Shown here: in pieces, positions 8,527 through 41,923 of the stretch
How positions within the stretch are numbered: position 1 is the first letter of the stretch
How the letters are laid out: the number at the start of each line of letters is the position of its first letter
Virus record (IMG/VR): IMGVR_UViG_3300028429_000229
Length of the DNA: 42,577 nt
Direction: 5' to 3' (one strand)
Origin: a virus
Program-made: the position numbers and the translations under genes
The notes under the pieces: generated by a model
Databases searched by the model: none
Told to the model about the DNA's origin: nothing
Seen by the model: only the letters and a program-made list of their open reading frames with translations

Positions 8527-8527
8527 C

Positions 8528-9073: not shown

Positions 9074-9076
9074 CAG

Positions 9077-16131: not shown

Positions 16132-16133
16132 CC

Positions 16134-17474: not shown

Positions 17475-17483
17475 GGCGGCGAG

Positions 17484-18014: not shown

Positions 18015-18034
18015 CCAACCCAAAGGAGTTACCC

Positions 18035-18232: not shown

Positions 18233-18477
18233 GCGCCCTTCTCGCCGCGATCCTGAAGGGGTTCGGCGATTTTCTCGCGCGTCTCGTCGCCGATTGGCGG
18301 CGCGACCGCGACCTTCAGGACAAGGGCCGGGCCGAGGGCTCGGCTGATCTCAACCGGGGAATCGCGGGAGTCGCCGATGATCAGGCGAAAAACAATTCTG
18401 TTGAGCGCGGCGGCGCTGCTGACGTTCTTGACCGGCTGCGCAAGCGGCCCAGGACCGATGGCGCTGGCCGTCCATGA
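18229..18477 (+). CDS. Putative i-spanin (Rz-like), atypical
   Basis: GTGA overlap with the holin stop. Contains the start of the lipoprotein gene in another frame. The N-terminal hydrophobic segment is weak (it contains K, D and R). Confidence 0.4.
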   Translation: MSALLAAILKGFGDFLARLVADWRRDRDLQDKGRAEGSADLNRGIAGVADDQAKNNSVERGGAADVLDRLRKRPRTDGAGRP

Positions 18478-18676
18478 ACCGGGGTTCGACGCCTCCAAGC
18501 TCGCAACCCAGCGCACCATTGCGCCCGCCTGCCCGACACCATCGAGCGCCGAAAAGCTCCGCGTGATCGAGGTGGAAATAGAAGCGGCTATTCGGGCCGG
18601 GGCCGCACCGGATGCGCTCGCGACCGAGTGGGAGCGGCTCGACGAGGCCGCGCGCATTTGCAGGGGGCGGAAATGA
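18377..18676 (+). CDS. o-spanin (Rz1-like outer-membrane lipoprotein)
   Basis: Signal peptide MIRRKTILLSAAALLTFLTGC with lipobox LTGC. Starts inside the preceding ORF and extends beyond it (overlapped spanin architecture). Confidence 0.7.
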   Translation: MIRRKTILLSAAALLTFLTGCASGPGPMALAVHEPGFDASKLATQRTIAPACPTPSSAEKLRVIEVEIEAAIRAGAAPDALATEWERLDEAARICRGRK

Positions 18677-18710
18677 AGCAGAACAATGCGCTGCGGAAGG
18701 GGTATTGCCG

Positions 18711-18923
18711 ATGAAAACCCCAGACGTTGAAGCGATTAATCTCGACGCTCGCTTGGCCACTTTTGACGATGGCGGCACGGGCATCATTACGGATATGTTC
18801 GATGCCGATGGCGAGGATACCGCTGACCCTGAAGAAGCCGTTGCCGTGGTGATTGAGCACAAGAAAAGTGGGCGTTTCTTTGTCGGGCTACCAGAGGACT
18901 TTGATTCAGGGGTCTTGCAATGA
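18711..18923 (+). CDS. Hypothetical acidic protein
   Basis: 70 aa counted from ATG 18711. Lower-GC segment after the lysis cassette. Confidence 0.5.
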   Translation: MKTPDVEAINLDARLATFDDGGTGIITDMFDADGEDTADPEEAVAVVIEHKKSGRFFVGLPEDFDSGVLQ

Positions 18924-19150
18924 GTGAAGATACGCGCGACATTGCTATTGCAACCAAAACTGAGGTTGCCCGCCTGCGTGAAGATGTCAGGGAAATGCGC
19001 GATGAGATTGCCGAGTTTAAGCGCGACCTAAACGAGCGGCGCGGCATGGAAAAGCTCGCGGGCTGGATGCGAACAACCATCGGCGGGGGCATTGGTTCCG
19101 GTCTGACAATCGTTGCTTACAAGCTAATGGGCCTTCCCCTCCCCAAATAA
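18920..19150 (+). CDS. Hypothetical membrane-anchored protein
   Basis: ATGA overlap. Coiled-coil N-terminus and a C-terminal hydrophobic segment GGGIGSGLTIVAYKLMGL. Confidence 0.55.
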   Translation: MSEDTRDIAIATKTEVARLREDVREMRDEIAEFKRDLNERRGMEKLAGWMRTTIGGGIGSGLTIVAYKLMGLPLPK

Positions 19151-19160
19151 GGAGCCGCCT

Positions 19161-19529
19161 ATGTTCGGCACGCCTTTTGGACCACCGCCCCCGGAGTGTC
19201 GCGGTTCATTTCGCACAGCTCTCTTTCTGTTCGTGGTGTTCTTTGTCCTGTTTGGCGTGGGTGCTTACCACGCAAGGGCGCATAGCTGGTATCCATATGA
19301 ATGCTGCTCGGAAGTTGATTGCTTCCCTGTCCCGGTTCCGCGCACCGAGATCGAGCGCACGCCGGATGGATGGCGGCTCAAGAAGGAGGGGGTTGTCATC
19401 CCCTTTGATGCGGCGCGGACTTCGCCCGATGGGCAATTCCATCTCTGCCGGGATGAGCGTGGCAAGGGAAAGCTCATCACGCCCTACGGAAAGCCGCCAT
19501 GCTTTTGGGTGCCGGAGCCGGGAGGGTGA
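19161..19529 (+). CDS. Cys-rich secreted or membrane protein
   Basis: AAGGAG RBS. N-terminal TM/signal LFLFVVFFVLFGVGAY followed by HSWYPYECCSEVDCFPV. Last gene of the rightward block. Confidence 0.65.
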   Translation: MFGTPFGPPPPECRGSFRTALFLFVVFFVLFGVGAYHARAHSWYPYECCSEVDCFPVPVPRTEIERTPDGWRLKKEGVVIPFDAARTSPDGQFHLCRDERGKGKLITPYGKPPCFWVPEPGG

Positions 19530-20433: not shown

Positions 20434-22422
20434 CTACGCCTCGATGACCACATAGCGCCGGGCCGTGTCTCCGCCCGGCACCGTCTTGGTCTGAACGCTG
20501 ACGCGCAAGCCGCCGTCAACCTCAACGGGTGTCGCCAGCCTCAACTCGACCAGCACCTTCAGGTGCCGCAGGTCGCCACTCGCCGGCACCTGCTCGCGGA
20601 AATACGGCTCGGCGTCAGTCAGAACCTTGGCCGCATCGTGGGTCAGCAGATGCTGCGTCCCGTGGCGATCCATGTAGCTCGCCAGAATGGTTGCCATCAT
20701 GCGCCCCTCGCCTGCCGACGTGGCCGTGGTGTCGAACGGGCGCAGCGCGTAGCTGCTGTCGCCATTCGGCAGCGGGAAGCCTTGCCGTTCCAGCCACAGG
20801 GGCTTCGTCTCGATCGCGGCGTTGTTCGACTTGGCGTCGTCGATGCGAACGTACTTGGCCCGGTAGCCTTCGCCGAACCCGTATAGCGCTGCGTCGTGCT
20901 CGTCGGCAGCGTACATGGTCGCCGTGATCCGAACCGCGTTGACGATGTTGCCCGCACCGCGCACTGCGTCCTGCGAGCCGGCGGCGCGCACACCCTTGGG
21001 CGTGTGCTGCAACACCAGCGACGCCACGTTGGCGAGGCGGGCCAGCCCGTTCACAGCTTCCATGACTTCGCCCATCGCCACGTTGTCGTTTTCTTCCTCG
21101 TGGTGCAGGCTCACCAGCGGGTCAAGGGTCAGCACGTCGAAGCTCTCGCCTTTGATCAGCCTCGCCAATTCCTGCACATCGGCCATCACGACCTGGTGGT
21201 TCTTGTCCATCAGCCGGAACCGCATCTCGCGACCCGGCCACAGCAGAACGTTCCGCTCGACCTCGGCGACATCCAGACCGTAGATCGCGCATGTCGCGTA
21301 CAGCCGCGCTTCCATCTCGTGCCGGTCATCTTCGAGGTTGTAGATCACGGTCTTGAACGGGCGGGGCACATGGTAGTTCCCGAACGGTCGGCCGACCGCG
21401 CCGTGCGCAGCGATCGCCAGCGACAGCGCCGACTTGCCGACGCCGCCCGCGCCGGCCAGCACGGTCGTCTCGCGCCGCAGCAGCAGCCTGTGCATCACCC
21501 ACTCACGCGCAGGAATATTCTCGATCGGCGTGAGCTTGCGCTTCTGAAACACGCTGTCGAACTTCCCGCGCGACGACGGGGCTGGCAGCGTGACCGGCTC
21601 GCCGGCTTGGTCCTTCAGCGATGACACGCCACCGGACCCCTGCCGGGCCAGTGCGTAGTTCGCCGCATTGCCGCAGATCGTCACAAGCTCGGCGATGTCC
21701 CACGGCGGCGAACAGCGCGGGTTCCAGTGCTCAGCCATCAGTTCGGCCGCGCGCTCGCCCGACACGCCGATCTCGATCAGCCGGGCCGCCACGGCATAGG
21801 TTGTGTTGTTCCCGCCCCGCCCCTCGACCGCAGCGGGCGCATCCTTCTCGAGATAGTGGATGGCGAACACGATGTCGTCGGGATCGTCCACGCTGACGGC
21901 CGCCGCGCGGTCGCGCTGCTTCGGCTCCCCGCATTGCAGGATAAAGCTGGCCGGCGCAGCAGCGGCCTGCCGGTCCTCGACCAGCGTGTACGCGCCGCGG
22001 TACCCCTTGGCCCCGTCGGCGTCGTCAAACACAGAGCCGGGGCCGACGACGTAGCCGCCCTTCGATCGGATGTCGATGCCGGGCGCCACGCGATCCACGC
22101 TGTTCGCCACATCCGGCCCGCGATAGTACAGGTGCATCCCGCCGCCGGGCGTCCTGACGGTCAACGTCTCGGGCAGGTCCACGTCCAGCAGCGACGCGAA
22201 GCCGTTCTTGCCGGCGTCCACATCCACGATCAGCCAGCCGTCACCGCCCGCCACGCCGTAGTTGTAGCTCGGGTTGAACGCCCACCACGCGCGGATCTTG
22301 GCCGGATCACTGGTCGCTTCGGCCCGCCACAGCAGGCCCTTGGGCGGCACCTTGCTGCCGGGCTGGATCGGGAAGATGCGGAAGCCGCGCGCGGCCCACG
22401 CCAGGGCGTAGTCCAGTAGCAT
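20434..22422 (-). CDS. Bifunctional primase-polymerase (PrimPol) / helicase
   Basis: N-terminal GFRIFPIQPGSKVP, LIVDVDAGKNG and GGGMHLYY (PrimPol motifs). Central Walker A is LAGAGGVGKS (RepA/DnaB-like ATPase). Confidence 0.85.
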   Translation of the reverse strand: MLLDYALAWAARGFRIFPIQPGSKVPPKGLLWRAEATSDPAKIRAWWAFNPSYNYGVAGGDGWLIVDVDAGKNGFASLLDVDLPETLTVRTPGGGMHLYYRGPDVANSVDRVAPGIDIRSKGGYVVGPGSVFDDADGAKGYRGAYTLVEDRQAAAAPASFILQCGEPKQRDRAAAVSVDDPDDIVFAIHYLEKDAPAAVEGRGGNNTTYAVAARLIEIGVSGERAAELMAEHWNPRCSPPWDIAELVTICGNAANYALARQGSGGVSSLKDQAGEPVTLPAPSSRGKFDSVFQKRKLTPIENIPAREWVMHRLLLRRETTVLAGAGGVGKSALSLAIAAHGAVGRPFGNYHVPRPFKTVIYNLEDDRHEMEARLYATCAIYGLDVAEVERNVLLWPGREMRFRLMDKNHQVVMADVQELARLIKGESFDVLTLDPLVSLHHEEENDNVAMGEVMEAVNGLARLANVASLVLQHTPKGVRAAGSQDAVRGAGNIVNAVRITATMYAADEHDAALYGFGEGYRAKYVRIDDAKSNNAAIETKPLWLERQGFPLPNGDSSYALRPFDTTATSAGEGRMMATILASYMDRHGTQHLLTHDAAKVLTDAEPYFREQVPASGDLRHLKVLVELRLATPVEVDGGLRVSVQTKTVPGGDTARRYVVIEA

Positions 22423-22667
22423 CACCGCACCCGCTTCACGGCGCGGTAGCTGTTCTTCAGTTCGCCGAGCGCCAGCACGTAGCCCTCACGCTTCAGCGCT
22501 GTGCGAGCCTCGCCAATGGCGCGGCTGCACCGGCTGTGCATTTGCGTCGGCGTCAAGCTGTCCGACGGCTCGCGGCTCACGATCCGGTAGATCTGTTCGA
22601 GCTTGATGTCCTGACCTGGCAGGTTCATGAACGTCCGAACCAGTTCCTCGTAAGCCTTCTTTTTCAT
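22422..22667 (-). CDS. Small hypothetical protein, possible DNA-binding regulator
   Basis: 81 aa. AGGAGA RBS. First gene behind promoter/operator copy A. Its stop overlaps the primase ATG by 1 nt. Confidence 0.6.
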   Translation of the reverse strand: MKKKAYEELVRTFMNLPGQDIKLEQIYRIVSREPSDSLTPTQMHSRCSRAIGEARTALKREGYVLALGELKNSYRAVKRVR

Positions 22668-22683: not shown

Positions 22684-22719
22684 GCATAAATGTTTATGCG
22701 CGTTTCGCCTGCCGGTCAA
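22684..22719 (-). promoter_or_regulatory. Promoter P_A plus palindromic operator
   Basis: Minus strand reads TTGACC (22719-22714), a 15-bp spacer, then CATAAA (22698-22693). The palindrome gcataaatgtttatgc occupies 22684-22699. Confidence 0.6.
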
Positions 22720-22900
22720 TAGCGATTTCGACCGCAAGGTTCAGCGCATCGACAATCCGTTCGGCGTCGTCCCGGTTGAAGCACATGGCGACAGCCTTGA
22801 TGGCTTTCGTTTCGCCGACCGCCGGGTGTCCGCGCTTGCGGTCGAACACGAACCATCGCCCGCGCACATCTTCCGTAGTCTCGTAGTAGTAGCGGTTCAT
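22694..22900 (-). CDS. Hypothetical protein
   Basis: ATG 22900 with AGGAGG upstream and an ATGA overlap with the polymerase stop. Its TAA stop lies inside the operator half-site. Confidence 0.6.
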   Translation of the reverse strand: MNRYYYETTEDVRGRWFVFDRKRGHPAVGETKAIKAVAMCFNRDDAERIVDALNLAVEIAIDRQAKRA

Positions 22901-25026
22901 TTCACAAACCTCCTGTCGCGCCACGCGGCGCTGGTTAACGGGAAGCCGGCAGCCCAAGACGGCAGCACGGCCATGAGTTCCTGCACTTCAGCCTTGTCCC
23001 CGGTGCCGATCAGAACCTCGAACACGCCTTCATCATGGACATGGAGCACAACCGGGTAGCCGGCGCGCTCGCAGTTCATCATGCCGAACACAAGCAGATC
23101 GCGGCACAAACCCTGGATGATGTTCTCCCATATCAGCCCGCCGTAGAGCGACACATCGCCCCACTTGTTCAAGCGGCTGTCCCCTCCCTCGACGATGACC
23201 TGCCGCCGAATACGGCCGGCTTCCTTCGTCTCGCGGATGCGCGGGTAAAAATATGACAGCGGCCTGCCGCTCGGCAGATAGATGTGCAGGAACTTGCGGT
23301 TGCGTGCGCAGTACATCCTGACCTTGCCGCCGAGTAGCTGGACCATCTGGCCCGGCTCGCTGACGGCCTCGACCACGGCGTCCTGCACGTCCCACCACGA
23401 CTGAACCGTGCGCGGGTGGCCGGCTCGCCAGCCGTCCACGACGTAGCGCAGCGAGGTCCACACATCTTCGGACAGCCCGAACTTCGCGCTGTTCTCGAAC
23501 TTGACCCGCGACTTCTCCCACATCACAGGGTCGGCGGTCGGCATCACGACTCGCGCGATGGCGTCCGGCTTGAACCCGTAGTTCGCAGCGCCGGACAGGA
23601 ACGCGCCGACCGCACCCTGGTAGCCGAGGAACAGTTCCTGCACCTTGCCGATCTGGCGCTTCGGCCCCTTGCCGATGCTCTCGACCGGCTCGCCGAACGA
23701 CTTGCTGTATGACAGCTTGTACAGGTCCGGCCCGATCCCCGCGTCGTATTCGCGGAACGCCTCGGTCTTCCACGTCTCGCCGGCCAGCCACGCCGAGCCG
23801 CGCCCCTCGACGTTCGAGTAGTCGCAGCCGATCAGTTCCTTGCCGTCCTCGGCGACGATCATCGCGCGGGTGCACTTGCCGATCGCGCGCATCGGCACGT
23901 AGCCGAGCAGTTCGCACCAGTCCACGGCATCGGCCGGCGAAGCGGCGTTCCGCAGGATGTGCAGCATGTTCTCGATCAGCGGCCCGTCTTCGTCGGGGTC
24001 TATGCGCTCAAGGTTGTGCGGCTGGTACAGCGACCCGGCCCACCGGCCGGTGCTGGCCTTGTGGTAAACCAGCAGGCCGCGCGCCCGCTCGTCGAAGTTC
24101 ACGCAGCGCAGACCCGCCCCGTACTTCGCCAGACTGGTCGCCTTTGCCCCGAGCCGGCGCAGCGTCACGACGCGCTCGGCCAGTTCGTCCTCGAACAGCC
24201 GGGCGTGGTCGATGATGTCCTCGACATCGCCCTTGCTCATGCTCTCGACCGGGATGCCGCGCCCGCGCAGCCACGTCTTGATGCTTTCAAGCTGCGTGGC
24301 CTTCGCCACAGCGCCGTCCGTCAGCGCGCACAACTCGACATCGACGCGGCGCTTCGCCTCGTCCAGGAATGCGTCGGCCTTGCGCATCAGTTCCGTATCG
24401 AGACGGAAGCCGCGCAGGTTCACAACAAGATCAAAATGGTAGACCTCGCGCTCTCCGTCGCTGAACGGCGGCAGTTCCTTGTCAAGGTCGATCGTCGTCC
24501 ACACGTCGTCCGGACAGTAAACGTACAGCTTTCTGAAATCCTCAGGGTCTTCGTTCCATAGGATCACATCAGTCGGCTCGCCTTTCTTCGGCTTGCGCGG
24601 CTTGCACAGCCGCACCATCGCCGCGTGACCCTCGGCGTTCTTGCGGGCCTTGACCCGCAGCAGCGTGCTCGCGCCGTCCAGTGATCCCATCAGGGACATG
24701 ATGTGCGACCGCGCCATCGTGCAGTCCATCTGATGCGGAGACAGCTTGCCCCACCCAAGGCGCGGTTCGCAAACGTAGGTCCAGATCATCAGCTCGAACA
24801 TGGCGTTGTGTGCCACGATCGTCGCGCCTGCGGCCACGGCGTCGATCAGGTTTCGTGGCGGCGGGTCGCCCCGCCGCCACAGGGTCATGGAACCGTGGCC
24901 CCATTCATCCTCGATCAGATACGCCGCGCACAGAACCTCCGTCGTGGGATCCTGCGCGTAACGCGCGGATCCGCACTTCACCAGGTCGCATGCACTGCGC
25001 GTTTCGAAATCGAGATAAATCTTCAT
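22897..25026 (-). CDS. Family A DNA polymerase with 3'-5' exonuclease domain
   Basis: 709 aa counted from ATG 25026. ExoI IYLDFETRS, motif A CDYSNVEGR, motif B RQIGKVQELFLGYQG, motif C LHVHDEG. Confidence 0.9.
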   Translation of the reverse strand: MKIYLDFETRSACDLVKCGSARYAQDPTTEVLCAAYLIEDEWGHGSMTLWRRGDPPPRNLIDAVAAGATIVAHNAMFELMIWTYVCEPRLGWGKLSPHQMDCTMARSHIMSLMGSLDGASTLLRVKARKNAEGHAAMVRLCKPRKPKKGEPTDVILWNEDPEDFRKLYVYCPDDVWTTIDLDKELPPFSDGEREVYHFDLVVNLRGFRLDTELMRKADAFLDEAKRRVDVELCALTDGAVAKATQLESIKTWLRGRGIPVESMSKGDVEDIIDHARLFEDELAERVVTLRRLGAKATSLAKYGAGLRCVNFDERARGLLVYHKASTGRWAGSLYQPHNLERIDPDEDGPLIENMLHILRNAASPADAVDWCELLGYVPMRAIGKCTRAMIVAEDGKELIGCDYSNVEGRGSAWLAGETWKTEAFREYDAGIGPDLYKLSYSKSFGEPVESIGKGPKRQIGKVQELFLGYQGAVGAFLSGAANYGFKPDAIARVVMPTADPVMWEKSRVKFENSAKFGLSEDVWTSLRYVVDGWRAGHPRTVQSWWDVQDAVVEAVSEPGQMVQLLGGKVRMYCARNRKFLHIYLPSGRPLSYFYPRIRETKEAGRIRRQVIVEGGDSRLNKWGDVSLYGGLIWENIIQGLCRDLLVFGMMNCERAGYPVVLHVHDEGVFEVLIGTGDKAEVQELMAVLPSWAAGFPLTSAAWRDRRFVK

Positions 25027-25196
25027 CCGAACATTCCGATCCCTTGGGGTGCACCTGCTTGACTTCTTGCTTCCGCGCCCACAGTGCACCTTGCATCCAT
25101 TGCTGCGCGTCCTTGGTTCCAAGGTCGAACGGGCATACGGCAGCCGCGGTCCTTCGGCGCAAGTCTTCCACGCCTTTTCTGTAAGGGTTCACGTTA

Positions 25197-25940
25197 TTAC
25201 CCCCACCCGTCGCTGCCGCCGGCCGCAGCCGTGGACTGCATGATCTGGTTCGGGTCTTCGACCCCGAGCGCGACCGCCTCGCCGCCCTCGTCAGCCGACG
25301 CGCCGCCCCCGCCACCGAGGAAGTTGTCGTCGGCCAGCTTCCACAGGCCCTGCAACCCAAGAGCCACGCCGGGATTGGCCGACGTGGTGGACTTGAAGCA
25401 GACCAGCTTCGCCTCGACCCACGCGCCGCCGTACATTTCCTTTTCCAGTTCTTCGGGCAGGATCGGCACCCACCGCCCGGCAACCGCCTTGAAGCACGGG
25501 ACCTGCCGACCGGACTTGGCGTTGAAGAACGGCAGGCCGACGACATAGCCGTCGCTGGTGCCCTTCATCGGCTCACGCCCACCGTCGGCGACGTTGACCT
25601 TCAGAGCCTGGTCCTTGATCGGCGAGTTCTTGCTGTACTTGTCCATGAACATGGACGGGTCGGTGACGCTCGGATACGCAGCGCGCGCCGTGCTCTTGCA
25701 CAACTCGGCAAGCGGGCCGATGTTCGTGGTCGGGAACAGTCCGGCCGCCTGATACTTGCCTTCGGCGTTCGGGTCGCGAAGGTTCTTGGCTCGCTTCGCA
25801 AGGCTCGGGTACGACAGGCGCACCGCGCCGCTCAGCACGCCGCCACCTTCGGCGACGCGCATCGGTTTGCTGCGCAGCAGGAAGTTGATCTGCTCCAGCG
25901 TCAGGCGCGTATTCATGCGCGGGTCAATCGCGGTCAACAT
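25197..25940 (-). CDS. DUF2815-type phage single-stranded DNA-binding protein
   Basis: VRLSYPSLAKRA...GKYQAAGLFP pattern. Gly-rich, acidic C-terminal tail. Canonical position between the DUF2800 nuclease and the polymerase. Confidence 0.7.
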   Translation of the reverse strand: MLTAIDPRMNTRLTLEQINFLLRSKPMRVAEGGGVLSGAVRLSYPSLAKRAKNLRDPNAEGKYQAAGLFPTTNIGPLAELCKSTARAAYPSVTDPSMFMDKYSKNSPIKDQALKVNVADGGREPMKGTSDGYVVGLPFFNAKSGRQVPCFKAVAGRWVPILPEELEKEMYGGAWVEAKLVCFKSTTSANPGVALGLQGLWKLADDNFLGGGGGASADEGGEAVALGVEDPNQIMQSTAAAGGSDGWG

Positions 25941-25956
25941 TTTCGATCTCCGATTT

Positions 25957-27153
25957 TCAGGGTTGCGGCAGCGCGACAGGCGCTCCGACCGTGGCAGTCA
26001 TTGCAGCGGCGGGGTCCACGGCCTCCCCCTTCGCCGTCTCAGGGACCAGCTTCAATCCCGAAGATTTCTTCTCGACAAACGCGGCCATGGATTTCACGGC
26101 GGCCTTGTCGGACTTGATCAGCTTCTCCGCCTGCGCGACGGTCAGCAGCTTGCGCGGCGCGTACTCGTCCTCGTCGAGTATGGTGTTCTCGGCGAACCAT
26201 CTCTTCGCCCCTTCGGCGTTCTCCCACGACCGGCGAGCCTGCTTCTCGATCAACTTCATGCCGGGGATCTTCGTGCCGCCCATCGCCATCGACAGGGCGG
26301 CGTCCTCGATGCCGTCGATGAACGCCTGCAGCACGGGCAGCAGCGCCAGCGTCTCGGCCAGTTTCTGCGGATCGCGGCATGAACCGGCAGGCGGTAACGT
26401 TACAGTTACGCTGTCGCCGTGCACCGGCCATATCTCGGTTGCGCGGACCGCTGTTCGCGGCAGCGCCGGGCAGTCCGGCGCGCCCGCGCACCACTGGCAC
26501 CACGAACCCGGCGTCGGTTCTGGCTCGACCGCCAGCGCGTTCGCCCTTGCCTCGTCAATCTCACCGTCGAGCACCATCAGGTCCGCCGGCCCGTAGAGCA
26601 TCGTGCGGATCGGCTCGGCACCGAACGCGCGTGGCTGGATCACAGTTGCCTCGATACGACGAACCGGGTGCTGCCAGTTGATCGTTGCGCACAAGGCGTA
26701 AAACCGAAGCTGCACCGCCGCCGCGTCAACCAGTTTATAGCCGTGCTTGTAGTCGATGACGCGCAGCGTCTCGGATGCCGGGTCGTAGATCACGCAATCC
26801 GCCGTGCCGCCCGTATCCTCGTGCAGCTTGAACTTCTGCTCGATCAGCACGATTGCATCCGGCTCATGCAGCAGCGGCAGGATGAAATCGACGGCCTTCT
26901 GCACCGCCTCGACATCCTCGGCGTCGTATTCGACGTGGCCCGGCAGCAGAGCCTGGCCCTCGAACTCCAACACGCTGTCCCGCCGCTCGCGCAGCGCCAG
27001 TTCCAGCAGGGCATGGGCATGGGTGCCGCGCATGGCGTGCTCGCTCGGCGGGCTTGGCGGCGCGGCGGCGCACAGCTTGACGGACGCCGCGCACCGCAAC
27101 CAGCGGTGCGCGTTCGATCCGCCGAACGGAAGATGTTCCCGTTCGTCTGACAT
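25957..27153 (-). CDS. DUF2800-type PD-(D/E)XK (Cas4-like) nuclease
   Basis: GGSNAHRWLRCAAS, GTHAHALLE, VIDYKHGYKLV and QLRFYAL motifs. C-terminal Cys cluster WCQWCAGAPDCPA. Confidence 0.8.
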   Translation of the reverse strand: MSDEREHLPFGGSNAHRWLRCAASVKLCAAAPPSPPSEHAMRGTHAHALLELALRERRDSVLEFEGQALLPGHVEYDAEDVEAVQKAVDFILPLLHEPDAIVLIEQKFKLHEDTGGTADCVIYDPASETLRVIDYKHGYKLVDAAAVQLRFYALCATINWQHPVRRIEATVIQPRAFGAEPIRTMLYGPADLMVLDGEIDEARANALAVEPEPTPGSWCQWCAGAPDCPALPRTAVRATEIWPVHGDSVTVTLPPAGSCRDPQKLAETLALLPVLQAFIDGIEDAALSMAMGGTKIPGMKLIEKQARRSWENAEGAKRWFAENTILDEDEYAPRKLLTVAQAEKLIKSDKAAVKSMAAFVEKKSSGLKLVPETAKGEAVDPAAAMTATVGAPVALPQP

Positions 27154-27154
27154 A

Positions 27155-27574
27155 TCAGATCACCTTCTTGCCGGCGGCAAAAGCGTTCAGGTCGGCGAGC
27201 AGCCGCGCGCGCTGATCGGCGCGAACCGTGCGCAGACCGGCGGGCGAGCCGTCGTCCTTCTGGAACGTGGCCGCAATGTATTCCTTCACCCTGGCCTGCG
27301 CGCCGGCACCGAGCTTGTCGATGGCGCTGTTCGCCGCCGTCGACAGTTCCGCCTCAGTCGGCACGTAGTCAGAAGGGGCGCCTGCGGTAATGGCGGCAGG
27401 TGCGGGCTCCGGGGCTGCGGGGGTTTCCTTCTTCTCGGCCTTGGCCTTGGGCGGGGCCGACGGCGTAGGCACGGCGGCCGGGGCGGGAAAACCGTGCGTC
27501 CCGGCCAAGGCACTCAGTACCCGAGCAACGTCGTCCTTTTCCGTGTCGAGATTGATTTGAATGTGGATTTGCAT
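27155..27574 (-). CDS. Hypothetical protein with a Pro/Ala-rich linker
   Basis: ATG 27574 with AGGAGA upstream. Sits immediately behind promoter P_B. Confidence 0.6.
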   Translation of the reverse strand: MQIHIQINLDTEKDDVARVLSALAGTHGFPAPAAVPTPSAPPKAKAEKKETPAAPEPAPAAITAGAPSDYVPTEAELSTAANSAIDKLGAGAQARVKEYIAATFQKDDGSPAGLRTVRADQRARLLADLNAFAAGKKVI

Positions 27575-27601
27575 GTCGATGTTTCTCCTGTGTTGATCGA
27601 C

Positions 27602-27638
27602 GCATAAAATATTATACATACTGGCGGGTCGGTGTCAA
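27602..27638 (-). promoter_or_regulatory. Promoter P_B plus operator
   Basis: Minus strand reads TTGACA (27638-27633), a 16-bp spacer, then TATAAT (27616-27611). The palindrome gcataaaatattatac occupies 27602-27617 (1 mismatch). Confidence 0.75.
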
Positions 27639-27853
27639 CCGTCGCCTTTGATGAGTGCGCCGATGCGCGCAAAGTTTTCCGGCGTTATGGCGCCGGCTTC
27701 GTCGATCCATACTCGGGTTAAAGTTGGGGTTTTTATCACTTTCGGCTGGCGACACAGCAGCGGATAATTGTGTCGGTGCCGCGCTCCCGCCGCGTAACTC
27801 GTGAACCGAGCGCCGCACGCGCAACCGTATGTCTCAGACCAGTGGCGTTTCAT
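27635..27853 (-). CDS. Small protein with a C2H2-like zinc-finger motif
   Basis: 72 aa counted from ATG 27853 (GGAGG RBS). Motif YGCACGARFTSYAAGARHRH fits C-x-C-x12-H-x-H. Confidence 0.55.
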   Translation of the reverse strand: MKRHWSETYGCACGARFTSYAAGARHRHNYPLLCRQPKVIKTPTLTRVWIDEAGAITPENFARIGALIKGDG

Positions 27854-27878
27854 GCCATTGCCTCCTGTGTTGATCGAC

Positions 27879-27915
27879 GCATAAAATATTATGCAGATTG
27901 GCGGGTTGGTGTCAA
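27879..27915 (-). promoter_or_regulatory. Promoter P_C plus operator
   Basis: Minus strand reads TTGACA (27915-27910), a 16-bp spacer, then CATAAT (27893-27888). The perfect palindrome gcataaaatattatgc occupies 27879-27894. Confidence 0.75.
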
Positions 27916-28157
27916 CGCGATTTTCTAAATTCCAATAGCGCATCGGCAACTTTGAATGCCGCTCTCGCGATGTCATCGGACCTATGTCTCGACAAGAAAT
28001 CCGTGTTCGACATAAGCCCGGCTACAGCCTGCCCCGCGAACCAATCGCGCAAGGACATGCCGGACACCGTGCCGTGGTGCCAAGTGTACCCGTCGCTACA
28101 CACTTTCGAGTATTCTGCGTGTGTTGGAAACGCCTGTCCGCCATCTTTCACATTCAT
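27912..28157 (-). CDS. Hypothetical conserved phage protein
   Basis: ATG 28157 with GGAGGAG upstream. Motif DGGQAFP...GMSLRDWFAGQA is common in small phage proteins. Confidence 0.6.
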   Translation of the reverse strand: MNVKDGGQAFPTHAEYSKVCSDGYTWHHGTVSGMSLRDWFAGQAVAGLMSNTDFLSRHRSDDIARAAFKVADALLEFRKSR

Positions 28158-28158
28158 G

Positions 28159-28485
28159 TTACGCTCCTCCTTGCTCAAATTCGCGAACCGCGTCGAGCAC
28201 AGCACCTGCCACACCCTGCGGTTCGCCCTCGTCGCCGCGCGTCATGGCGGCGGACAGCTCTGCGATCGTTGCGCCGTGTTGCAGCGCGATGCTGATCAGC
28301 GTGGCAGTGTCGCGGGCGGCAACGTCCATGGCAGTTGTCGGCTTGTTAGCCGAGATAAATACTTCCTTCGGAGTGCCGGCCTCGTCGAACCCGACCATCA
28401 CGTCGTAGACCAAAACGGAAATATTGCCGGGGTGCGGCAGTGTAAACGTTAACCCCGGCCTGCGGTTCTTCAATCGTGACCTCAC
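28159..28485 (-). CDS. Stand-alone domain resembling the C-terminal (TSCPD-type) region of class II ribonucleotide reductase
   Basis: GTGA-coupled start. Pattern VMVGFDEAGTPKEVFISANK...ATLISIALQHGATIAELS...EPQGVAGAVLDAV parallels the NrdJ C-terminus (G.lgEiFid..K.G...a...S..LQ.G.p...P.G....S.lD.v). Confidence 0.45.
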   Translation of the reverse strand: MRSRLKNRRPGLTFTLPHPGNISVLVYDVMVGFDEAGTPKEVFISANKPTTAMDVAARDTATLISIALQHGATIAELSAAMTRGDEGEPQGVAGAVLDAVREFEQGGA

Positions 28486-29831
28486 GCCATCGCCTCCTGT
28501 AGATTGTCCTTCGCGGTGATCGAGACGATCGTATTGGCCTTGCGGGTTACGATCGAGGCGACCGTTTGATCGAAGCTGTTTTGCAGCATCACGAAGCGCG
28601 CGAAGGTGGGGCGCTTCTGTCCCTTGCGGCGCACGCGGCGCACAGCCTGGATGTTATCGGCCGGCGTCCACGAGCTTTCCAGCATGTCGAGCCGGCAAGC
28701 CGCAGTCAACGTGATGCCGGTGCCTGCGGCGGTGATGTTCCCGACGAGGACCCGCACGCCGTCCTGTTCGTGCTGGAAGCTCTGCACCGCATCTGTGCGC
28801 GCCTTCTCGCTCGTGCCGCCGACAATCGCGGCGGTGCGGATACCAGCCTGCGTCAAATGGTCCGCGACAAGCTGGATCGCGCGGCGGTGGTGCGCCATCA
28901 CGACCAGTTTGTCGATCGTGCCGGACTTGATCTCGTCCGTGATGAGCCGGGCGTAGCCGGGTGCCTTGGCCTCGGCAATCAGCGCGCGCAAGGTGGCGAC
29001 ATGGGTGCTGTCGTCGAACGACAGCGCACCTTCGGCCTCGACGGCCTGCACAATCCGCTGATCGAGCCCTGGATACTGCCGCAGGTAGTTCACGATTTCC
29101 TCGCGGGATCCGTCCACTGCCAGCGGGTCGATGCGGATCGGCGGTAACTGTTCGCCCACGTCGTCGAATGTCCGCATGATCGACATCGTGCGCAGCAGCG
29201 CCTGCAACTCGGGCAGCGCCTCCTTGCGCACCGTATTGGACACCGAAAATGTGCCGATCCGCTGCTTGAAGTAGCGCTTCTGGAATGCAGTGAACGCGAG
29301 CGGCGTCGCGCCGGCCAGCCGCATCGGCACCCATAAATCCGCCGGGTCGTTCTTGATTGGCGTGCCGGTCAGGCACCACACATGGTTCGCCATTGCGGCC
29401 ACGCCGCCGAGCCCGTTCGCCCCGATAATCGCCTTGGTGCGCTTCGCCTCGGGGTTCTTGAGGTAGTGGCTTTCGTCAATCACCAGCAGGTCGAAGAAAT
29501 CCGCCGCGAGGTCCGCCGACCAGTTGGTTGCCTGCTCGAACGACACGACCAGCACGTCGATCTTGTCCCGCTGCCACATATCCAGGTCGAACACGCTGTC
29601 GGCCTTGCACACCCGCGCACCGTCGCGGCCCCACAGCTTGAACTGGTAGGGCCAGACCTGCCGCACGCCGGCCGGGCAGATGACCAGCGTGCGCCCGGCG
29701 CGCACAAGCTCGCGGGCGCGGATGGCCTGCGCGGTCTTGCCGAGCCCCGGCTCGTCGAAGATCGAGGCGCGGTGCTTGCTCGCGAGAAACGCCGCGCCCT
29801 GAAGCTGGTATGGCTCAAGCTGGTCGGTCAC
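28482..29831 (-). CDS. SNF2-family helicase
   Basis: Walker A DEPGLGKTAQAI, motif II LVIDESHYLKN, C-terminal helicase motif GNITAAGTGITLTAA. GTG start overlapping the upstream stop. Confidence 0.85.
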   Translation of the reverse strand: MTDQLEPYQLQGAAFLASKHRASIFDEPGLGKTAQAIRARELVRAGRTLVICPAGVRQVWPYQFKLWGRDGARVCKADSVFDLDMWQRDKIDVLVVSFEQATNWSADLAADFFDLLVIDESHYLKNPEAKRTKAIIGANGLGGVAAMANHVWCLTGTPIKNDPADLWVPMRLAGATPLAFTAFQKRYFKQRIGTFSVSNTVRKEALPELQALLRTMSIMRTFDDVGEQLPPIRIDPLAVDGSREEIVNYLRQYPGLDQRIVQAVEAEGALSFDDSTHVATLRALIAEAKAPGYARLITDEIKSGTIDKLVVMAHHRRAIQLVADHLTQAGIRTAAIVGGTSEKARTDAVQSFQHEQDGVRVLVGNITAAGTGITLTAACRLDMLESSWTPADNIQAVRRVRRKGQKRPTFARFVMLQNSFDQTVASIVTRKANTIVSITAKDNLQEAMA

Positions 29832-30175
29832 TTCGGGTCATCCACTTTGAAGTTGACGGCCTCGGCGCCCTTGGTCACGAGCAGGCCCACTGTATCGCAG
29901 ATCTTCATTCCGTGCCGGGCAGCAAAGCGGTAAATCAGGTCGCACGTATCTTCGCGCAGACGGACGTTCATCTGCGTGTAGGTGTTGCGCGTGTCCGGCT
30001 TCGTGCCGTGGTAAATGTGCCGCCGGGACACGCCGATCAGCTTCGCGATCTTGTTGGGCAGAAACCCGGCAGCGCGCAACTCGCGCACAACCTCGTTGCG
30101 CTCCTGCACGGTCGTCCAAAAATATCGGCGCTCCTCGCCATTGACGTGCGCAACGACGGTGCGGTTTCCCTTCAT
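29828..30175 (-). CDS. DNA-binding protein: HTH plus a ribbon-helix-helix-like C-terminus
   Basis: Likely start ATG 30175 (ATGA overlap). HTH is PNKIAKLIGVSRRHIYHG. C-terminal MNVRLREDTCDLIYRFAARHGMKICDTVGLLV fits an RHH pattern. Confidence 0.6.
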   Translation of the reverse strand: MKGNRTVVAHVNGEERRYFWTTVQERNEVVRELRAAGFLPNKIAKLIGVSRRHIYHGTKPDTRNTYTQMNVRLREDTCDLIYRFAARHGMKICDTVGLLVTKGAEAVNFKVDDPK

Positions 30176-30381
30176 CGCTGGCATGTCGGACAAACCTTCT
30201 TGAGACTAATCGCCGCGACGATCCCGCGCCACTGCTTATCCTGCGGGTGTTCCACCTTGGCCCGCAAAGCCGCCACGGCCTCGCTAAAGTCGGCAAGCAT
30301 CTGGCCTTGGGTTTTGTGCTTCTTCAGTCGCACATTCACGCGGAATGCCGCTTCGGGCCACACCTGTTTCTCGGTCATCAT
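30172..30381 (-). CDS. Small protein, possible RHH-like regulator
   Basis: ATG 30381 with an ATGA overlap on the RusA stop. Segment AFRVNVRLKKHKTQGQMLADFSEAVAAL. Confidence 0.5.
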   Translation of the reverse strand: MMTEKQVWPEAAFRVNVRLKKHKTQGQMLADFSEAVAALRAKVEHPQDKQWRGIVAAISLKKVCPTCQR

Positions 30382-30821
30382 CCGATCCTCATCATCACGT
30401 AGCCCGGCCAGTCGGCCTCGGCTACGACGGTTGCAATACATTGGTCGTTCGGAAGTCCGTCGCACATATGCACCATGTGGTCGCGCATGTCGGCGTCATC
30501 AACCACGATTGCCAGCCCCTCGCGGGCTTGGTTCGCGACGCTCGGCGCGCGCAGCACGTCGGAGATCAGCTTGGTTCGGTTGTCGCTGTCACCTTTCATG
30601 TTCTTCGGCAGGTCGATCCATAGGCAGTAGCGGCCATTGCGGAACATCGGCAGCTTGTCGAAGTCGCCGAGTGTATCGCAGACCTGCTGCCACCAGAACC
30701 GATAAGCGGCGGTCTTGGCCGTGCGGTGCGAGTGACCCCGAGACGCGAACGCAGCGTTCACGCTCGGCGGCAGCGGCAGCCGCACGGACACAAGGTTCTG
30801 GCGAACGCGCGGCGGCATCAA
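30378..30821 (-). CDS. rusA: RusA-like Holliday junction resolvase
   Basis: LPLPPSVNAAF near the N-terminus and GDSDNRTKLISDVL (D.DN..K...D) motifs. Confidence 0.7.
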   Translation of the reverse strand: MMPPRVRQNLVSVRLPLPPSVNAAFASRGHSHRTAKTAAYRFWWQQVCDTLGDFDKLPMFRNGRYCLWIDLPKNMKGDSDNRTKLISDVLRAPSVANQAREGLAIVVDDADMRDHMVHMCDGLPNDQCIATVVAEADWPGYVMMRIG

Positions 30822-31024
30822 TCACCCTCGCGGTTTCGATCAACGCGCAGCAGCGTGTCGCGATGGCGCTTGTACATCTCGGCGCGCAACTCGGCCTGAC
30901 GGCGCGTGAGCCGCTCGGCCGCGAGCATGTCCGACATGTACATCCACACCGCCAGCCCGCAGCAGACGGCCGACACAACGGCCACGAACGCGAACCATGC
31001 GAATTGCTGAACCTCGGGCGTCAT
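30818..31024 (-). CDS. Small membrane protein
   Basis: TM segment FAWFAFVAVVSAVCCGLAVWMY. ATGA overlaps on both sides. Confidence 0.6.
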   Translation of the reverse strand: MTPEVQQFAWFAFVAVVSAVCCGLAVWMYMSDMLAAERLTRRQAELRAEMYKRHRDTLLRVDRNREGD

Positions 31025-31989
31025 GGTGCACCTGCCTCGCTGATCGCGTCCTGCGCCACCTTGGCCTTGTGCTCGGCGATGGCGCGCAGCGCAGCCATGC
31101 GCTCGGGCGTGGCCGGCGACCAGGTGCGTTCACCTTTGCGCATCAGCGACAGGTACGGGCGACTGATGCCAATCGCCTCGGCCAGATCGGCGTCACGCAC
31201 GCCAAGCTCCGAAAGATGCGCGGCGATCGACGCGACCGGGCTGACAGGGGCGTCACCCTTGGTTGCTTTGGCCGGGGCGGGCGTGGCGGGTGCCGGTTCA
31301 TCATCCCATCCGTCATCGCTGCTCGGCTCGGGTTCGGGCTGCTCAAATGCCTTCGCCACGAATGCCGGCGGCTTGAAGTCGTCGCCGTAACCGGCGGCCA
31401 GTTCGGGCGCAAACCCGATCACGCGGGCGCTACCTTCGATAAGCGGGCCGGCAGTTTTCAGATTATCGGCCGCGTCCTGGTAGATATCTTTCTTGCGCCG
31501 ATCCAGGTCAGCCGGGATTTCCAACTCGTGCTTCGGCTTCTGCGGCAGCGCGGCACCATGCAGGTGCGCGAGACGCGGTTCACTGCCGACGAACTCGCGA
31601 AGCTGCTTCCCGTCAACGGTCGAGATCGGCATGCCCGCGACGGCCAAGCCGAACGCCTGCCGGATGGCCGCGACACGCGCGGTCCAGTCCGACGCCTCGT
31701 AAATCGGCGTGGTTTCAACTTCCAGTCCCGGCGCGAACCGGGCGATGACCTCATCGAGATCAGCCAGCCCGCCGTTTTCCTCGATCTCGACCTCGCAGGC
31801 GACGGCCACGTCATCGACGAGCTTGCCGAGCCCGCGCGAGATCGCGGAACGGGCGTTTTCGCGGATCGCCGCGTTGGCCTTGTCCGTGACTGAAAGCCAC
31901 GTATCAGACGATCCGAACGCGGTTGGATCGTCGCGCAGCGAAAGCGGCCATTCGGCCGCCGCCCGCTCGATTTCTGCTCTGATGTCCAT
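31021..31989 (-). CDS. Hypothetical protein with a C-terminal HTH
   Basis: 322 aa. GAGAGGTGA RBS. First gene behind P_D. C-terminal DLAEAIGISRPYLSLMRKGER is Xre-like. Confidence 0.65.
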   Translation of the reverse strand: MDIRAEIERAAAEWPLSLRDDPTAFGSSDTWLSVTDKANAAIRENARSAISRGLGKLVDDVAVACEVEIEENGGLADLDEVIARFAPGLEVETTPIYEASDWTARVAAIRQAFGLAVAGMPISTVDGKQLREFVGSEPRLAHLHGAALPQKPKHELEIPADLDRRKKDIYQDAADNLKTAGPLIEGSARVIGFAPELAAGYGDDFKPPAFVAKAFEQPEPEPSSDDGWDDEPAPATPAPAKATKGDAPVSPVASIAAHLSELGVRDADLAEAIGISRPYLSLMRKGERTWSPATPERMAALRAIAEHKAKVAQDAISEAGAP

Positions 31990-32008
31990 TGGTTTTCACC
32001 TCTCGTTT

Positions 32009-32045
32009 GCATAAACCATTATGCGACCCCTGGCTGTCATGTCAA
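32009..32045 (-). promoter_or_regulatory. Promoter P_D plus operator
   Basis: Minus strand reads TTGACA (32045-32040), a 16-bp spacer, then CATAAT (32023-32018). The perfect palindrome gcataaaccattatgc occupies 32009-32024. Confidence 0.75.
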
Positions 32046-32317
32046 GAGTTCGCGTGGCGATCAGGCGCGGACTTCCGGTTCTGATCCTCTGCAGCCTTGT
32101 GTGCGGCATCGAATGTCCGAAACAGTCTCGGGCATCCTCGCGCGTCGAGCAGCTCCGCTTTGTGTGGCTGCGCGTCATCGTTCCAGACACGCCACATCGG
32201 CTTTCCGGCTTTTGTCATATACCCGCTTGCGGGTTTCCATGGGCCGGTCAAAGGAATGCGTTTTCGCGTCCACCTTTTAGGGTCGGTCAGGTTATGCGGA
32301 TCGTGTAGCGGGGCCAT
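32042..32317 (-). CDS. Hypothetical protein
   Basis: ATG 32317 behind repeat copy 1 (AAGGGTGA RBS). The track's 32326 start is a GTG. Confidence 0.55.
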   Translation of the reverse strand: MAPLHDPHNLTDPKRWTRKRIPLTGPWKPASGYMTKAGKPMWRVWNDDAQPHKAELLDARGCPRLFRTFDAAHKAAEDQNRKSAPDRHANS

Positions 32318-32319
32318 CT

Positions 32320-32352
32320 TTTTCACCCTTGGTTGCCTGGTTGCGTTGAAGC
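32320..32352 (-). repeat. 33-bp intercistronic leader repeat, copy 1
   Basis: ttttcacccttggttgcctggttgcgttgaagc is identical to 32608..32640. It ends 2-3 nt from the start codon. Confidence 0.9.
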
Positions 32353-34052: not shown

Positions 34053-34081
34053 TATATAGCGGGTTGTAACATTCGTGTCAA
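34053..34081 (-). promoter_or_regulatory. sigma70-like promoter P_E (no palindromic operator)
   Basis: Minus strand reads TTGACA (34081-34076), a 17-bp spacer, then TATATA (34058-34053). Confidence 0.65.
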
Positions 34082-34859: not shown

Positions 34860-34883
34860 GGTTATGCTCGAATTGAGAATAAG
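34860..34883. repeat. 24-bp imperfect direct repeat, copy 1
   Basis: ggttatgctcgaattgagaataag versus copy 2, 20 of 24 identical. Contains the TTATGC half-site. Confidence 0.7.
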
Positions 34884-34928: not shown

Positions 34929-34952
34929 GGTTATGCTCAGGTTGAGGATAAG
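34929..34952. repeat. 24-bp imperfect direct repeat, copy 2
   Basis: ggttatgctcaggttgaggataag. Confidence 0.7.
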
Positions 34953-35130: not shown

Positions 35131-35178
35131 TTGTTGGGCTTTTTGTTGGGCTTTTTGTTGGGCTTTTTGTTGGGCTTT
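35131..35178. repeat. Tandem repeat, 12 bp x 4 (ttgttgggcttt)
   Basis: Four perfect head-to-tail copies. It yields the QQKA repeat in a spurious minus-strand ORF. Confidence 0.95.
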
Positions 35179-35492: not shown

Positions 35493-35513
35493 GACATGCG
35501 CAAGGACCCGCCC
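35493..35513 (+). repeat. 21-bp direct repeat GACATGCGCAAGGACCCGCCC, copy 1
   Basis: Identical to 36034..36054. A partial third copy TGCGCAAGGA lies at 35574-35583. Confidence 0.9.
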
Positions 35514-35591
35514 TTGCCCTTTGCGCCGCTTTCTGCCGCGCGATGGCCGCGAAATCGAAGTGACTGGCATCCTTGCGCAAGGAGAGGACCG

Positions 35592-36035
35592 ATGTCGGAC
35601 GTTATTCAACTTGACGATCACCGGAGCCCAAAAGGGAGCGAACCTGGCCCGGACGCGGTTTGGCGGTGTGGGTGCGGATGTACAAGCTACTTCGCTCGGG
35701 CGGACGGACAGCTTGAGTGTGTGAGTTGCGGGTCTGTGGCCGACGGAGTGAACGGGGAGTGGCGGGCGAAGTTGCCGGACGCGAGCGCGCAACCACTGGC
35801 CCCGATGGAAACAGGAGGCTCCACGATTGTTACGGCACTTGGGTCAAGCGGGGCAGCGTGCCGACGCATTCTCGCGGCCGACCCCGAGGAGCTTGTTGCG
35901 GCCATTACTTTTGATAAAAACGGCACCATCGGGGCGTGGGGCCTCGGTTTTAACTGCCGCGAGAAACTGGAATGGCTCGATGAAAAGCTGGCGGTGGCGC
36001 GAAAGCTACTGACGGAAACAGGGAAACCGACCTGA
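35592..36035 (+). CDS. Zinc-ribbon protein, first gene of the rightward operon
   Basis: ATG 35592 with AAGGAGAGG RBS. Motif WRCGCGCTSYF...LECVSCG (Cys cluster plus CxxC). Confidence 0.65.
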   Translation: MSDVIQLDDHRSPKGSEPGPDAVWRCGCGCTSYFARADGQLECVSCGSVADGVNGEWRAKLPDASAQPLAPMETGGSTIVTALGSSGAACRRILAADPEELVAAITFDKNGTIGAWGLGFNCREKLEWLDEKLAVARKLLTETGKPT

Positions 36036-36054
36036 CATGCGCAAGGACCCGCCC
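36034..36054 (+). repeat. 21-bp direct repeat, copy 2
   Basis: Spans the stop of 35592..36035 and ATG 36037. Confidence 0.9.
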
Positions 36055-39209: not shown

Positions 39210-39213
39210 CCCC

Positions 39214-41084: not shown

Positions 41085-41093
41085 GACACAGCC

Positions 41094-41911: not shown

Positions 41912-41923
41912 TAGGGACACGAT

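Follow-up and report, generated by a model that had tools for sequence, protein, structure and literature searches.

Why would a phage place the same palindrome across the −10 region of several promoters, and what would read it? The question arises from an uncultured viral genome, IMG/VR record IMGVR_UViG_3300028429_000229, whose 42,577 nucleotides (nt) were analyzed as a whole and are referred to here as the window. An initial annotation, made from the sequence alone, had proposed four minus-strand sigma70 promoters (P_A to P_D; Table 1), each with its −10 hexamer embedded in the inverted repeat GCATAA-N4-TTATGC, and a fifth promoter, P_E, devoid of it. Checking the letters confirmed all four palindromes; the hexamers and spacings of P_A to P_D on the minus strand are as described, and P_E (34081–34053) indeed lacks the repeat. 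We argue below that the palindrome most likely serves as a binding site, not described before, for a phage regulator of a type that is ordinary in other respects and favor, with moderate confidence, its being the operator of a phage-encoded dimeric repressor that would act on host sigma promoters for shut-off or self-limitation of the replication operons.

To judge whether four copies could be coincidental, we compared site counts with those in 100 dinucleotide-preserving shuffles of the window. With at most one mismatch, the pattern GCATAANNNNTTATGC occurs at exactly four sites in 42.6 kb, far above the shuffle mean of 0.01, and none of the 100 shuffles reached four; the search proposed in the initial annotation thus came out in its favor, and the palindrome is not frequent outside promoters, with zero further copies in the genome at this threshold. 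The relaxed core, GCATA-N6-TATGC, gave three exact sites (0.02 expected) and four with up to one mismatch (0.5 expected). At up to two mismatches, seven sites stood against 9.5 expected in the whole window—no excess, and therefore no halo of degenerate copies around the four sharp ones. All four dyads lie on the minus strand, 14–15 nt after a TTGACA or TTGACC −35 box, and within the next 12–45 nt come a ribosome-binding site (RBS) and a start codon.

P_B, P_C, and P_D are the sole matches of at least 11/12 to the sigma70 consensus in the entire window, and the single mismatch in the P_B operator copy turns its −10 into a perfect TATAAT. P_A has no T at −7, its 15-nt spacing is outside 16–18 nt, and it did not appear in the list of the consensus scan. 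As a label, 'consensus sigma70 promoters' is limited to the window's subclade. Within the window, these cassettes are predicted to be the strongest promoters of the genome. P_B and P_C are almost identical over ~55 bp, 5′ untranslated region (5′ UTR; gtcgatcaacacaggag) included, arguing for a recent duplication, so that the window holds three independent instances and one copy. P_C is missing from an 87%-identical relative (L028), which has three sites only, and we regard P_C as a lineage-specific duplicate of P_B that would drive an inserted 72-aa Cys/His-rich gene. The promoters are packed into coding ends: the TAA stop of the upstream 87-aa open reading frame (ORF; 22694–22957) falls inside the left half-site of P_A (GCA-TAA, 22694–22699), and the −35 box of P_D overlaps the end of ORF 32042–32326.

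The evidence that carries most weight comes from related phages. When IMG/VR and other assemblies were searched with the proteins as anchors, over 20 related contigs came to light (labels Lnnn denote related loci or contigs; W, the window), with primases ~67%, SNF2 helicases 64–76%, and homologs of a 322-aa protein 26–93% identical to those of the window. Every recovered relative carries, on the coding strand, TTGAC(A)-N14/15-GCATA-N6-TATGC followed by a Shine-Dalgarno sequence and a start codon. These cassettes occupy three orthologous junctions: upstream of the 322-aa homolog, where one inserted gene sometimes separates the two (P_D position; L019–L022 and L025–L029); after the SNF2 gene and before the homolog of a 139-aa protein (P_B position; L002, L003, L005, L009, L019–L022, L025, L026, and L028); and before the homolog of an 81-aa protein plus the primase (P_A position; all relatives covering that junction). 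The junction positions are kept across phages whose flanking proteins are just 27–75% identical. In MAFFT alignments of the orthologous intergenic regions, TTGAC, GCATA, TATGC, and the start codon are invariant at a mean column identity of 50–54%; TTGAC and both half-sites are thus under strong purifying selection at orthologous positions.

Site statistics were drawn from 36 non-redundant site contexts from the relatives. From the end of TTGAC to the dyad there are 15 nt at 21 of the 36 and 16 nt at another 11, always on the coding strand, and an RBS and start codon follow the dyad within 12–45 nt in 35/36. Both arms are invariant in all 36 contexts and their half-site centers are 11 bp apart, while the 6-nt center is variable and 69% A+T. 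The initial annotation's 6 + 6-bp repeat is present in the window, but the conserved core is 5 + 5 bp: position 6 of the operator is A in the window's subclade (GCATAA/TTATGC in W and L025–L028), C in L029, and mixed elsewhere, and a weak symmetric extension (c…g) around the dyad gives [c]GCATA-N6-TATGC[g], or 16–18 bp. Such invariant arms around a varying, AT-rich center read as the signature of a dimer contacting double-stranded DNA in two major grooves.

An exact IMG/VR scan with the strict string TTGACA-N15-GCATAA-N4-TTATGC returned no match; the relaxed core was required. With the relaxed cassette, multi-site loci across IMG/VR were confined to this clade, and each of the other ~90 matches was a lone site, located in an AT-richer contig or within coding sequence, in line with chance. 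Very probably, the dyad serves these promoters as a conserved, functional cis-element.

Does selection act on the dyad itself or on the −10 hexamer embedded in it? In other subclades, the hexamer within the dyad reads CATAGA, CATAAC, CATAGG, or CATATA, with no T at −7. The hexamer thus drifts away from TATAAT while GCATA stays, which argues for selection on the dyad rather than on the −10. The dyad covers the −10 and the expected +1 in 32/36 contexts and sits in the spacer between −35 and −10 in 3/36. At these three independent sites (L004 5879; the 8924-type site of L002, L009, and L010; L029 8815), TTGAC abuts the dyad and a TAnnnT hexamer (TACGGT, TAGGGT, or TAGCTT) follows 17 nt after TTGACG, so that the dyad can evidently occupy the spacer instead of the −10. 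Both placements, over the −10 and in the spacer, are classic positions for steric repression. Spacers measure 15–16 nt where the dyad lies over the −10 and 17 nt where it lies between the boxes; the over-long spacer of MerR-type promoters was not seen, and family searches of the window ORFs found no MerR-family protein.

A palindrome in a transcribed region could also act at the level of structure, as an RNA or single-stranded DNA (ssDNA) hairpin in processing, stability, or translational control of read-through transcripts. The four window copies do fold, as RNA, into 6–8-bp hairpins of −5.5 to −7.4 kcal/mol, better than their shuffles (z −2.7 to −3.6), and read-through transcripts from upstream units would contain them. 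Yet compensatory stem changes are lacking across the 36 contexts: the five stem bases of either side stay constant, whereas mismatches (A-C, G-G, or T-C) are frequent at the sixth pair in relatives. Besides, a transcript from the cassette's own promoter would begin inside the right arm, without the hairpin, and a fixed distance to the −35 box is meaningless for an RNA element. We therefore assign the hairpin a very remote chance. No Rfam family or tRNA was found in the window. On these patterns, the dyad is probably a protein operator, and a dimeric DNA-binding protein occluding the −10/+1 region would be the best explanation.

Small Cys/His-rich ORFs, inserted at various places of the replication module, each come with a cassette copy of their own. 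The window's insert encodes 72 aa (MKRHWSETYGCACG...; 27635–27853, behind P_C), and the inserts of relatives 96–107 aa, beginning MARKCCNCG... or MRARVCAECG... (L002 8924–9270, L009 8614, L021 18717, L029 8815), with the dyad in the spacer. Such genes are moron-like and would fall under the regulator of the module; as accessory genes that bring their own cassette, they indicate that the cassette acts as the module's standard expression unit.

Which genes would such an operator control? The window looks like the complete genome, ~42.6 kb in length, of an uncultured podovirus with T7-like structural genes, and the same phage was assembled elsewhere at 42.3–42.9 kb. The plus strand encodes T7-like podovirus proteins (portal, major head, tail tube B, internal virion proteins, tail fiber, and large terminase). 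A minus-strand block running from 34.6 to 20.4 kb comprises a lower-GC early region of unknown ORFs and, after it, the replication module in the order 322-aa protein, RusA-like protein, SNF2 helicase, 139-aa protein, DUF2800/PD-(D/E)XK nuclease, Enc34-type ssDNA-binding protein (SSB), family A polymerase, 81-aa protein, and Prim-Pol/AAA_25 primase-helicase (Table 1). P_D heads the 322-aa protein, the RusA-like protein, the SNF2 helicase, and small ORFs. Where the initial annotation had listed four controlled units, two small proteins among them, the cassettes instead cover essentially the whole replication module.

Table 1 Operator copies, promoters, and replication-module genes of the window
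Feature	Position	Strand	Remarks
Operator copy, P_A	22684..22699	minus	GCATAAATGTTTATGC
Operator copy, P_B	27602..27617	minus	GCATAAAATATTATAC (minus-strand letters GTATAATATTTTATGC); one mismatch
Operator copy, P_C	27879..27894	minus	GCATAAAATATTATGC
Operator copy, P_D	32009..32024	minus	GCATAAACCATTATGC (minus-strand letters GCATAATGGTTTATGC)
Promoter P_A	22693..22719	minus	TTGACC-15-CATAAA; heads the unit of the 81-aa winged-helix protein and primase-helicase
Promoter P_B	27611..27638	minus	TTGACA-16-TATAAT, 12/12; heads 139-aa protein, DUF2800 nuclease, Enc34-type SSB, PolA
Promoter P_C	27888..27915	minus	TTGACA-16-CATAAT, 11/12; drives inserted 72-aa ORF 27635-27853
Promoter P_D	32018..32045	minus	TTGACA 32045-32040, 16-nt spacer, CATAAT 32023-32018; 11/12
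P_E, promoter-like, early region	34053..34081	minus	TTGACA-17-TATATA; without palindrome; comparator
322-aa protein	31021..31989	minus	First gene after P_D; C-terminal helix-turn-helix; candidate binder
SNF2-family helicase	28482..29831	minus	In P_D unit
139-aa protein	27155..27574	minus	First gene after P_B; conserved, Ala/Pro-rich middle
DUF2800/PD-(D/E)XK nuclease	25957-27153	minus	P_B unit
Enc34-type ssDNA-binding protein	25197-25940	minus	P_B unit
Family A DNA polymerase	22897-25122	minus	P_B unit
81-aa protein	22422..22667	minus	First gene after P_A; predicted winged helix; candidate binder
Prim-Pol/AAA_25 primase-helicase	20434..22425	minus	P_A unit

To narrow down the protein that reads the dyad, we examined the four candidates that had been put forward. 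Two of them, at 22422–22667 (81 aa) and 31021–31989 (322 aa), are conserved with predicted DNA-binding folds and have held up; they are the only two DNA-binding proteins conserved throughout the clade, each being the first gene behind a cassette. The other two, a 115-aa helix-turn-helix (HTH) protein (29828–30175) and a 69-aa protein (30172–30381), belong to a variable segment, absent from L003 and replaced in L019 and L022 although these relatives retain the operator, and were rejected as the general binder. This slot of the P_D unit, flanked by the RusA-like and SNF2 genes, is occupied by an HNH/AP2-type endonuclease in L019 (9490–9996), an NrdR-like zinc-ribbon ORF of 70 aa in L022 (9796–10008), a double-HTH ORF in L021 (~9400–9790), and the 69-aa and 115-aa HTH ORFs in the window; it is absent in L003.

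For the 81-aa protein, sequence searches against Pfam, PHROGs, NCBIfam, and PDB gave nothing meaningful. Its AlphaFold2 (AF2) model (predicted local distance difference test score [pLDDT], 89.7) is a confident winged helix of three helices (H-H-H) and a beta-hairpin, and the best Foldseek matches were OmpR/PhoB/ToxR-type DNA-binding domains at a template modeling (TM) score of ~0.6, with weak E-values (0.04 or worse). Helix 3 is invariant (H44, R46-C47-S48-R49-A50-I51-G52) in 29 homologs that are otherwise 49–85% identical; as a putative recognition helix, it would match the invariance of GCATA.

The 322-aa protein, conserved in all relatives, consists of a helical N-terminal domain, a disordered acidic linker of ~100 residues, and a C-terminal HTH of the XRE/lambda-repressor type (residues ~250–300). 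Its C-terminal domain gave weak profile matches to XRE HTH and phage regulator families, and in Foldseek searches with the AF2 model it matched P22 c2, 434 repressor, C.Esp1396I, DdrO, and SinR with a root-mean-square deviation (rmsd) of 2.5–2.9 Å over ~50 residues. As modeled, this would be the archetypal fold for dyad operators. The linker (residues ~150–247) is hypervariable, acidic, Pro/Ala-rich, and disordered, and it holds an invariant DGWDDE(P), present in 2–4 repeats in some relatives, which has the look of a short linear motif for partner recruitment; the polymerase, helicase, SSB, or RNA polymerase could be that partner.

Operator position 6 does not discriminate between the two, as both change residues between subclades. 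Nor did the more distant L011–L018, with the same gene order and primases 31–40% identical: a search for an analogous repeat or dyad yielded noise only and no 81-aa or 322-aa homologs were detectable, so these loci are of no help in telling the binders apart. Overall, the 81-aa winged-helix protein is our leading, if tentative, candidate, the 322-aa protein comes close behind as a possible one, and something else—an early protein or a host factor—is a less likely binder.

How, then, would the cassette work? As we picture it, host RNA polymerase with its housekeeping sigma factor would transcribe the replication ('middle') module from P_D, P_B, and P_A, plus the duplicate P_C. In each cassette, TTGAC(A) would be followed after 14–15 nt by the dyad, whose left half would provide the −10 region and whose right half would cover the expected transcription start. 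A phage dimer sitting on two successive major grooves would block RNA polymerase from about −13 to +3, and its effect would be coordinated negative control, that is, self-limitation or late shut-off of all replication operons. Because each candidate is the first gene behind such a promoter, either the 81-aa or the 322-aa binder would be autoregulated. The analysis establishes the sites, with their statistics, conservation, and positions, and the predicted folds of the candidates; we infer that the promoters are active, that a protein binds them, in which direction it regulates, and which protein it is.

Several observations weigh against a phage-encoded repressor. In most relatives, the promoter has no recognizable −10 (no T at −7), which fits an activator-dependent promoter equally well; the folds nearest to the 81-aa protein are OmpR/PhoB-type domains, for which direct repeats are the usual target and activation is common; and the XRE helix of the 322-aa protein differs by subclade at the expected base-contact positions (SRPYLSLMRKG, SKGYYSQVRNG, and SGPYISMLKSG), yet GCATA is invariant. 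Moreover, there is one operator per promoter with no cooperative arrays, no regulator gene divergently adjoins a site, unlike in classical immunity regions, and there is a small chance that the binder is a host factor.

The first of these points leads to the opposite sign of control, with the dyad as the recognition element of phage 'middle' promoters that, having a good −35 and lacking a usable −10, need an early phage protein bound to the dyad or a modified RNA polymerase. The hexamer within the dyad of relatives (CATAGA, CATAAC, CATAGG, or CATATA) has no T at −7, while TTGAC and the dyad are invariant, and the 81-aa protein is similar to the activator domains of OmpR/PhoB/ToxR. The gene content can be read the same way. 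Family searches of the window ORFs found no phage RNA polymerase, integrase, or CI/Cro pair, and the structural-gene side (1–19500 and 35500–42577, plus strand) gave only chance-level promoter matches of 9–10/12; late transcription must therefore use some other mechanism, and the host polymerase must be reprogrammed somehow. However, a dimer across −13 to +3 would get in the way of sigma region 2 and of strand opening. The activators known so far contact DNA farther upstream than the −35 box, at the box itself, or, as MerR does, in over-long spacers. The spacer-type dyads sit at a normal 17 nt, in contrast to the 19–20 nt of MerR-type promoters. In addition, the sites of the window's subclade (12/12 and 11/12) are constitutive-type promoters needing no activator, and the genes of both candidate binders lie behind the very promoters that these proteins would switch on. 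We thus consider positive control unlikely. Slightly less likely still is its most novel form, a new class of 'middle' promoter that pairs a host-type −35 with a phage palindrome replacing the −10, read by the 81-aa or 322-aa protein that would recruit or remodel the host polymerase, possibly coupled to origin firing.

A host factor would come into play if the phage had borrowed a host transcription factor site, tying its replication genes to host physiology. That GCATA is invariant although the clade's 322-aa family diverges (27–42% identity) speaks for such an external reader, but the putative recognition helix of the 81-aa protein is equally invariant, so a host protein is not needed to account for it, and the cassette is limited to this phage clade in IMG/VR. 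To our knowledge, no bacterial regulator has a motif spaced like GCAT-N8-ATGC; the ARG boxes and the NsrR and AphA/PadR motifs have letters in common with it but another spacing or orientation. A literature search with the half-site strings together with operator or repressor yielded unrelated systems only. We rate a host-factor site as improbable.

Equally improbable, in our view, is a direct role in replication, whereby the dyads would bind an initiator or organizer (the 322-aa protein) at transcription-activated origins and repression would be a side effect. Every site does lie within the replication module; the 322-aa protein is the first module gene, and its HTH plus an acidic linker with an invariant aromatic-acidic motif suits partner recruitment; and the 81-aa protein is always paired with the primase-helicase. 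Still, the fixed register to TTGAC and to the RBS and ATG is a requirement of promoters, not origins. No iteron arrays or AT-rich unwinding elements adjoin the sites, 3–4 sites spread over 10 kb are atypical of an origin, and the large non-coding region at 34.6–35.5 kb, with its tandem repeats, is a better origin candidate.

An operator for a phage dimeric repressor has well-known counterparts. In lambdoid phages (lambda, 434, and P22 c2), repressor and Cro are XRE-type HTH dimers on 14–18-bp dyad operators overlapping early promoters. Half-sites of ~5 bp spaced one helical turn apart, overlap with the core promoter, and reuse at more than one promoter are shared with the present cassette. Unlike the cooperative triplets of lambdoid phages, there is one operator per promoter here; no divergent cI/cro switch, integrase, or other lysogeny function was found; control falls on the replication operons of a podovirus that appears to be lytic; the operators have no sequence in common; and the HTH of the 322-aa protein is C-terminal, behind a long disordered linker. 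The cassette would thus work like a lambdoid-type operator but is no immunity region. The C proteins C.Esp1396I and C.BclI likewise combine a small XRE dimer with a dyad at their own promoter for autoregulation and timing, and the C-terminal domain of the 322-aa protein has some of its best fold matches in this group; however, C proteins are ~80 aa long, use paired operators near the −35, activate at low concentration and then repress, and control one operon only.

P1 C1 and phiC31 c provide examples of one repressor acting on several operons, replication functions included, through one operator copied per promoter. In contrast to the phage studied here, P1 and phiC31 are temperate with defined immunity genes. 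The P1 operators are asymmetric 17-mers, the conserved inverted repeats of phiC31 accompany phage-specific rather than sigma70-like promoters, and neither set has sequence similarity to GCATA-N6-TATGC. The MotA/AsiA middle promoters of T4 are comparable as a lytic-phase promoter class on replication genes that combines a host core element with a phage element, but the MotA box is asymmetric and replaces the −35, whereas here a host-like −35 is joined to a phage-specific dyad over −10/+1, and family searches of the window ORFs turned up no MotA or AsiA homologs. Lastly, the stoperators of the immunity repressor of cluster A (L5-type) mycobacteriophages are asymmetric 13–14-bp, monomer-bound sites that number 20–30 per genome, lie mostly in transcribed regions, intragenic or inter-operon, and block elongation in one orientation (PMC9283540, PMC6550527). 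Both systems would have one phage regulator and many copies of one short site over the early/replication region, countable genome-wide and with subclade-specific variants; in contrast to stoperators, the present sites are palindromes, of which a genome has 3–4, all of them at promoters and with a fixed register to the −35.

What is new, then, is a promoter-operator cassette, together with its regulon, from a podovirus clade that is uncultured and common in the environment. Its design principle is a familiar one and, unless positive control proves true, the cassette is another instance of a well-understood design. If it does prove true, this would be a timing route for a podovirus without its own RNA polymerase, with no described precedent. 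The clade is abundant in metagenomes, and for such phages the cassette offers a testable regulatory map—three promoters, one operator, and two candidate regulators—that explains block-wise switching of the replication module in a phage wholly dependent on host RNA polymerase. The signature TTGAC-N15/16-GCATA-N6-TATGC, repeated 3–4 times, flags clade members and marks operon boundaries. A modest practical use would be in GC-rich hosts, where, after identification of the binder, the cassette could provide a strong promoter and its operator in compact form and open to repression.

Regarding the wider relationships of the phage, megablast against isolated phages gave no close DNA relative. The best isolate protein matches are 30–42% identical (Ralstonia RpY1/DU_RP_II, Burkholderia BcepC6B, and Rhizobium RHph_N65), and the replication proteins of the nearest isolates are 30–35% identical, leaving the clade without a cultured close relative; a literature search on the named nearest phages gave nothing on regulation. 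The 81-aa protein occurs, identical, on 50 contigs (NCBI, JGI, ENA, and Logan). L029 (JADJVZ010000008.1), a 36.7-kb phage-sized contig in the metagenome-assembled genome of a Micropruina sp., an actinobacterium from activated sludge, was the sole 81-aa-family match among 185,579 species genomes. It carries three exact core copies, two of them with GCATAC/GTATGC half-sites, plus one mismatched copy. Its binning may be a host clue or a mis-binning; a CHAP-domain lysin in the window (17484–18014) would fit a Gram-positive host.

We also noted further repeats. In the P_B leader (27575–27601), the Shine-Dalgarno sequence of the 139-aa gene is flanked by the two arms of an inverted repeat, GTCGAT-N14/15-ATCGAC, that is kept in the window's subclade (L025, L026, and L028); an RBS-sequestering hairpin was dismissed here, as shuffles fold equally well. 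In the large non-coding region ahead of the first early gene, a 24-nt direct repeat (CTTATyCTCAAyyyGAGCATAACC) occurs twice on the minus strand, 69 bp apart (34929–34952 and 34860–34883). Both copies are kept in the 87% relative L028, and a related single copy, GTCGCATAACCC, stands at the equivalent place in L019–L021. The repeat contains the operator half-site GCATAA and may be an early-promoter element, a weak or monomer site for the regulator, or part of an origin. Finally, the 0.9 kb of non-coding DNA that separates the divergent early and structural genes harbors a perfect tandem array of four 12-bp units (TTGTTGGGCTTT; 35131–35178). Two copies are present in L028, whereas the wider clade lacks the array, which may represent iterons of an origin or a packaging-related site.

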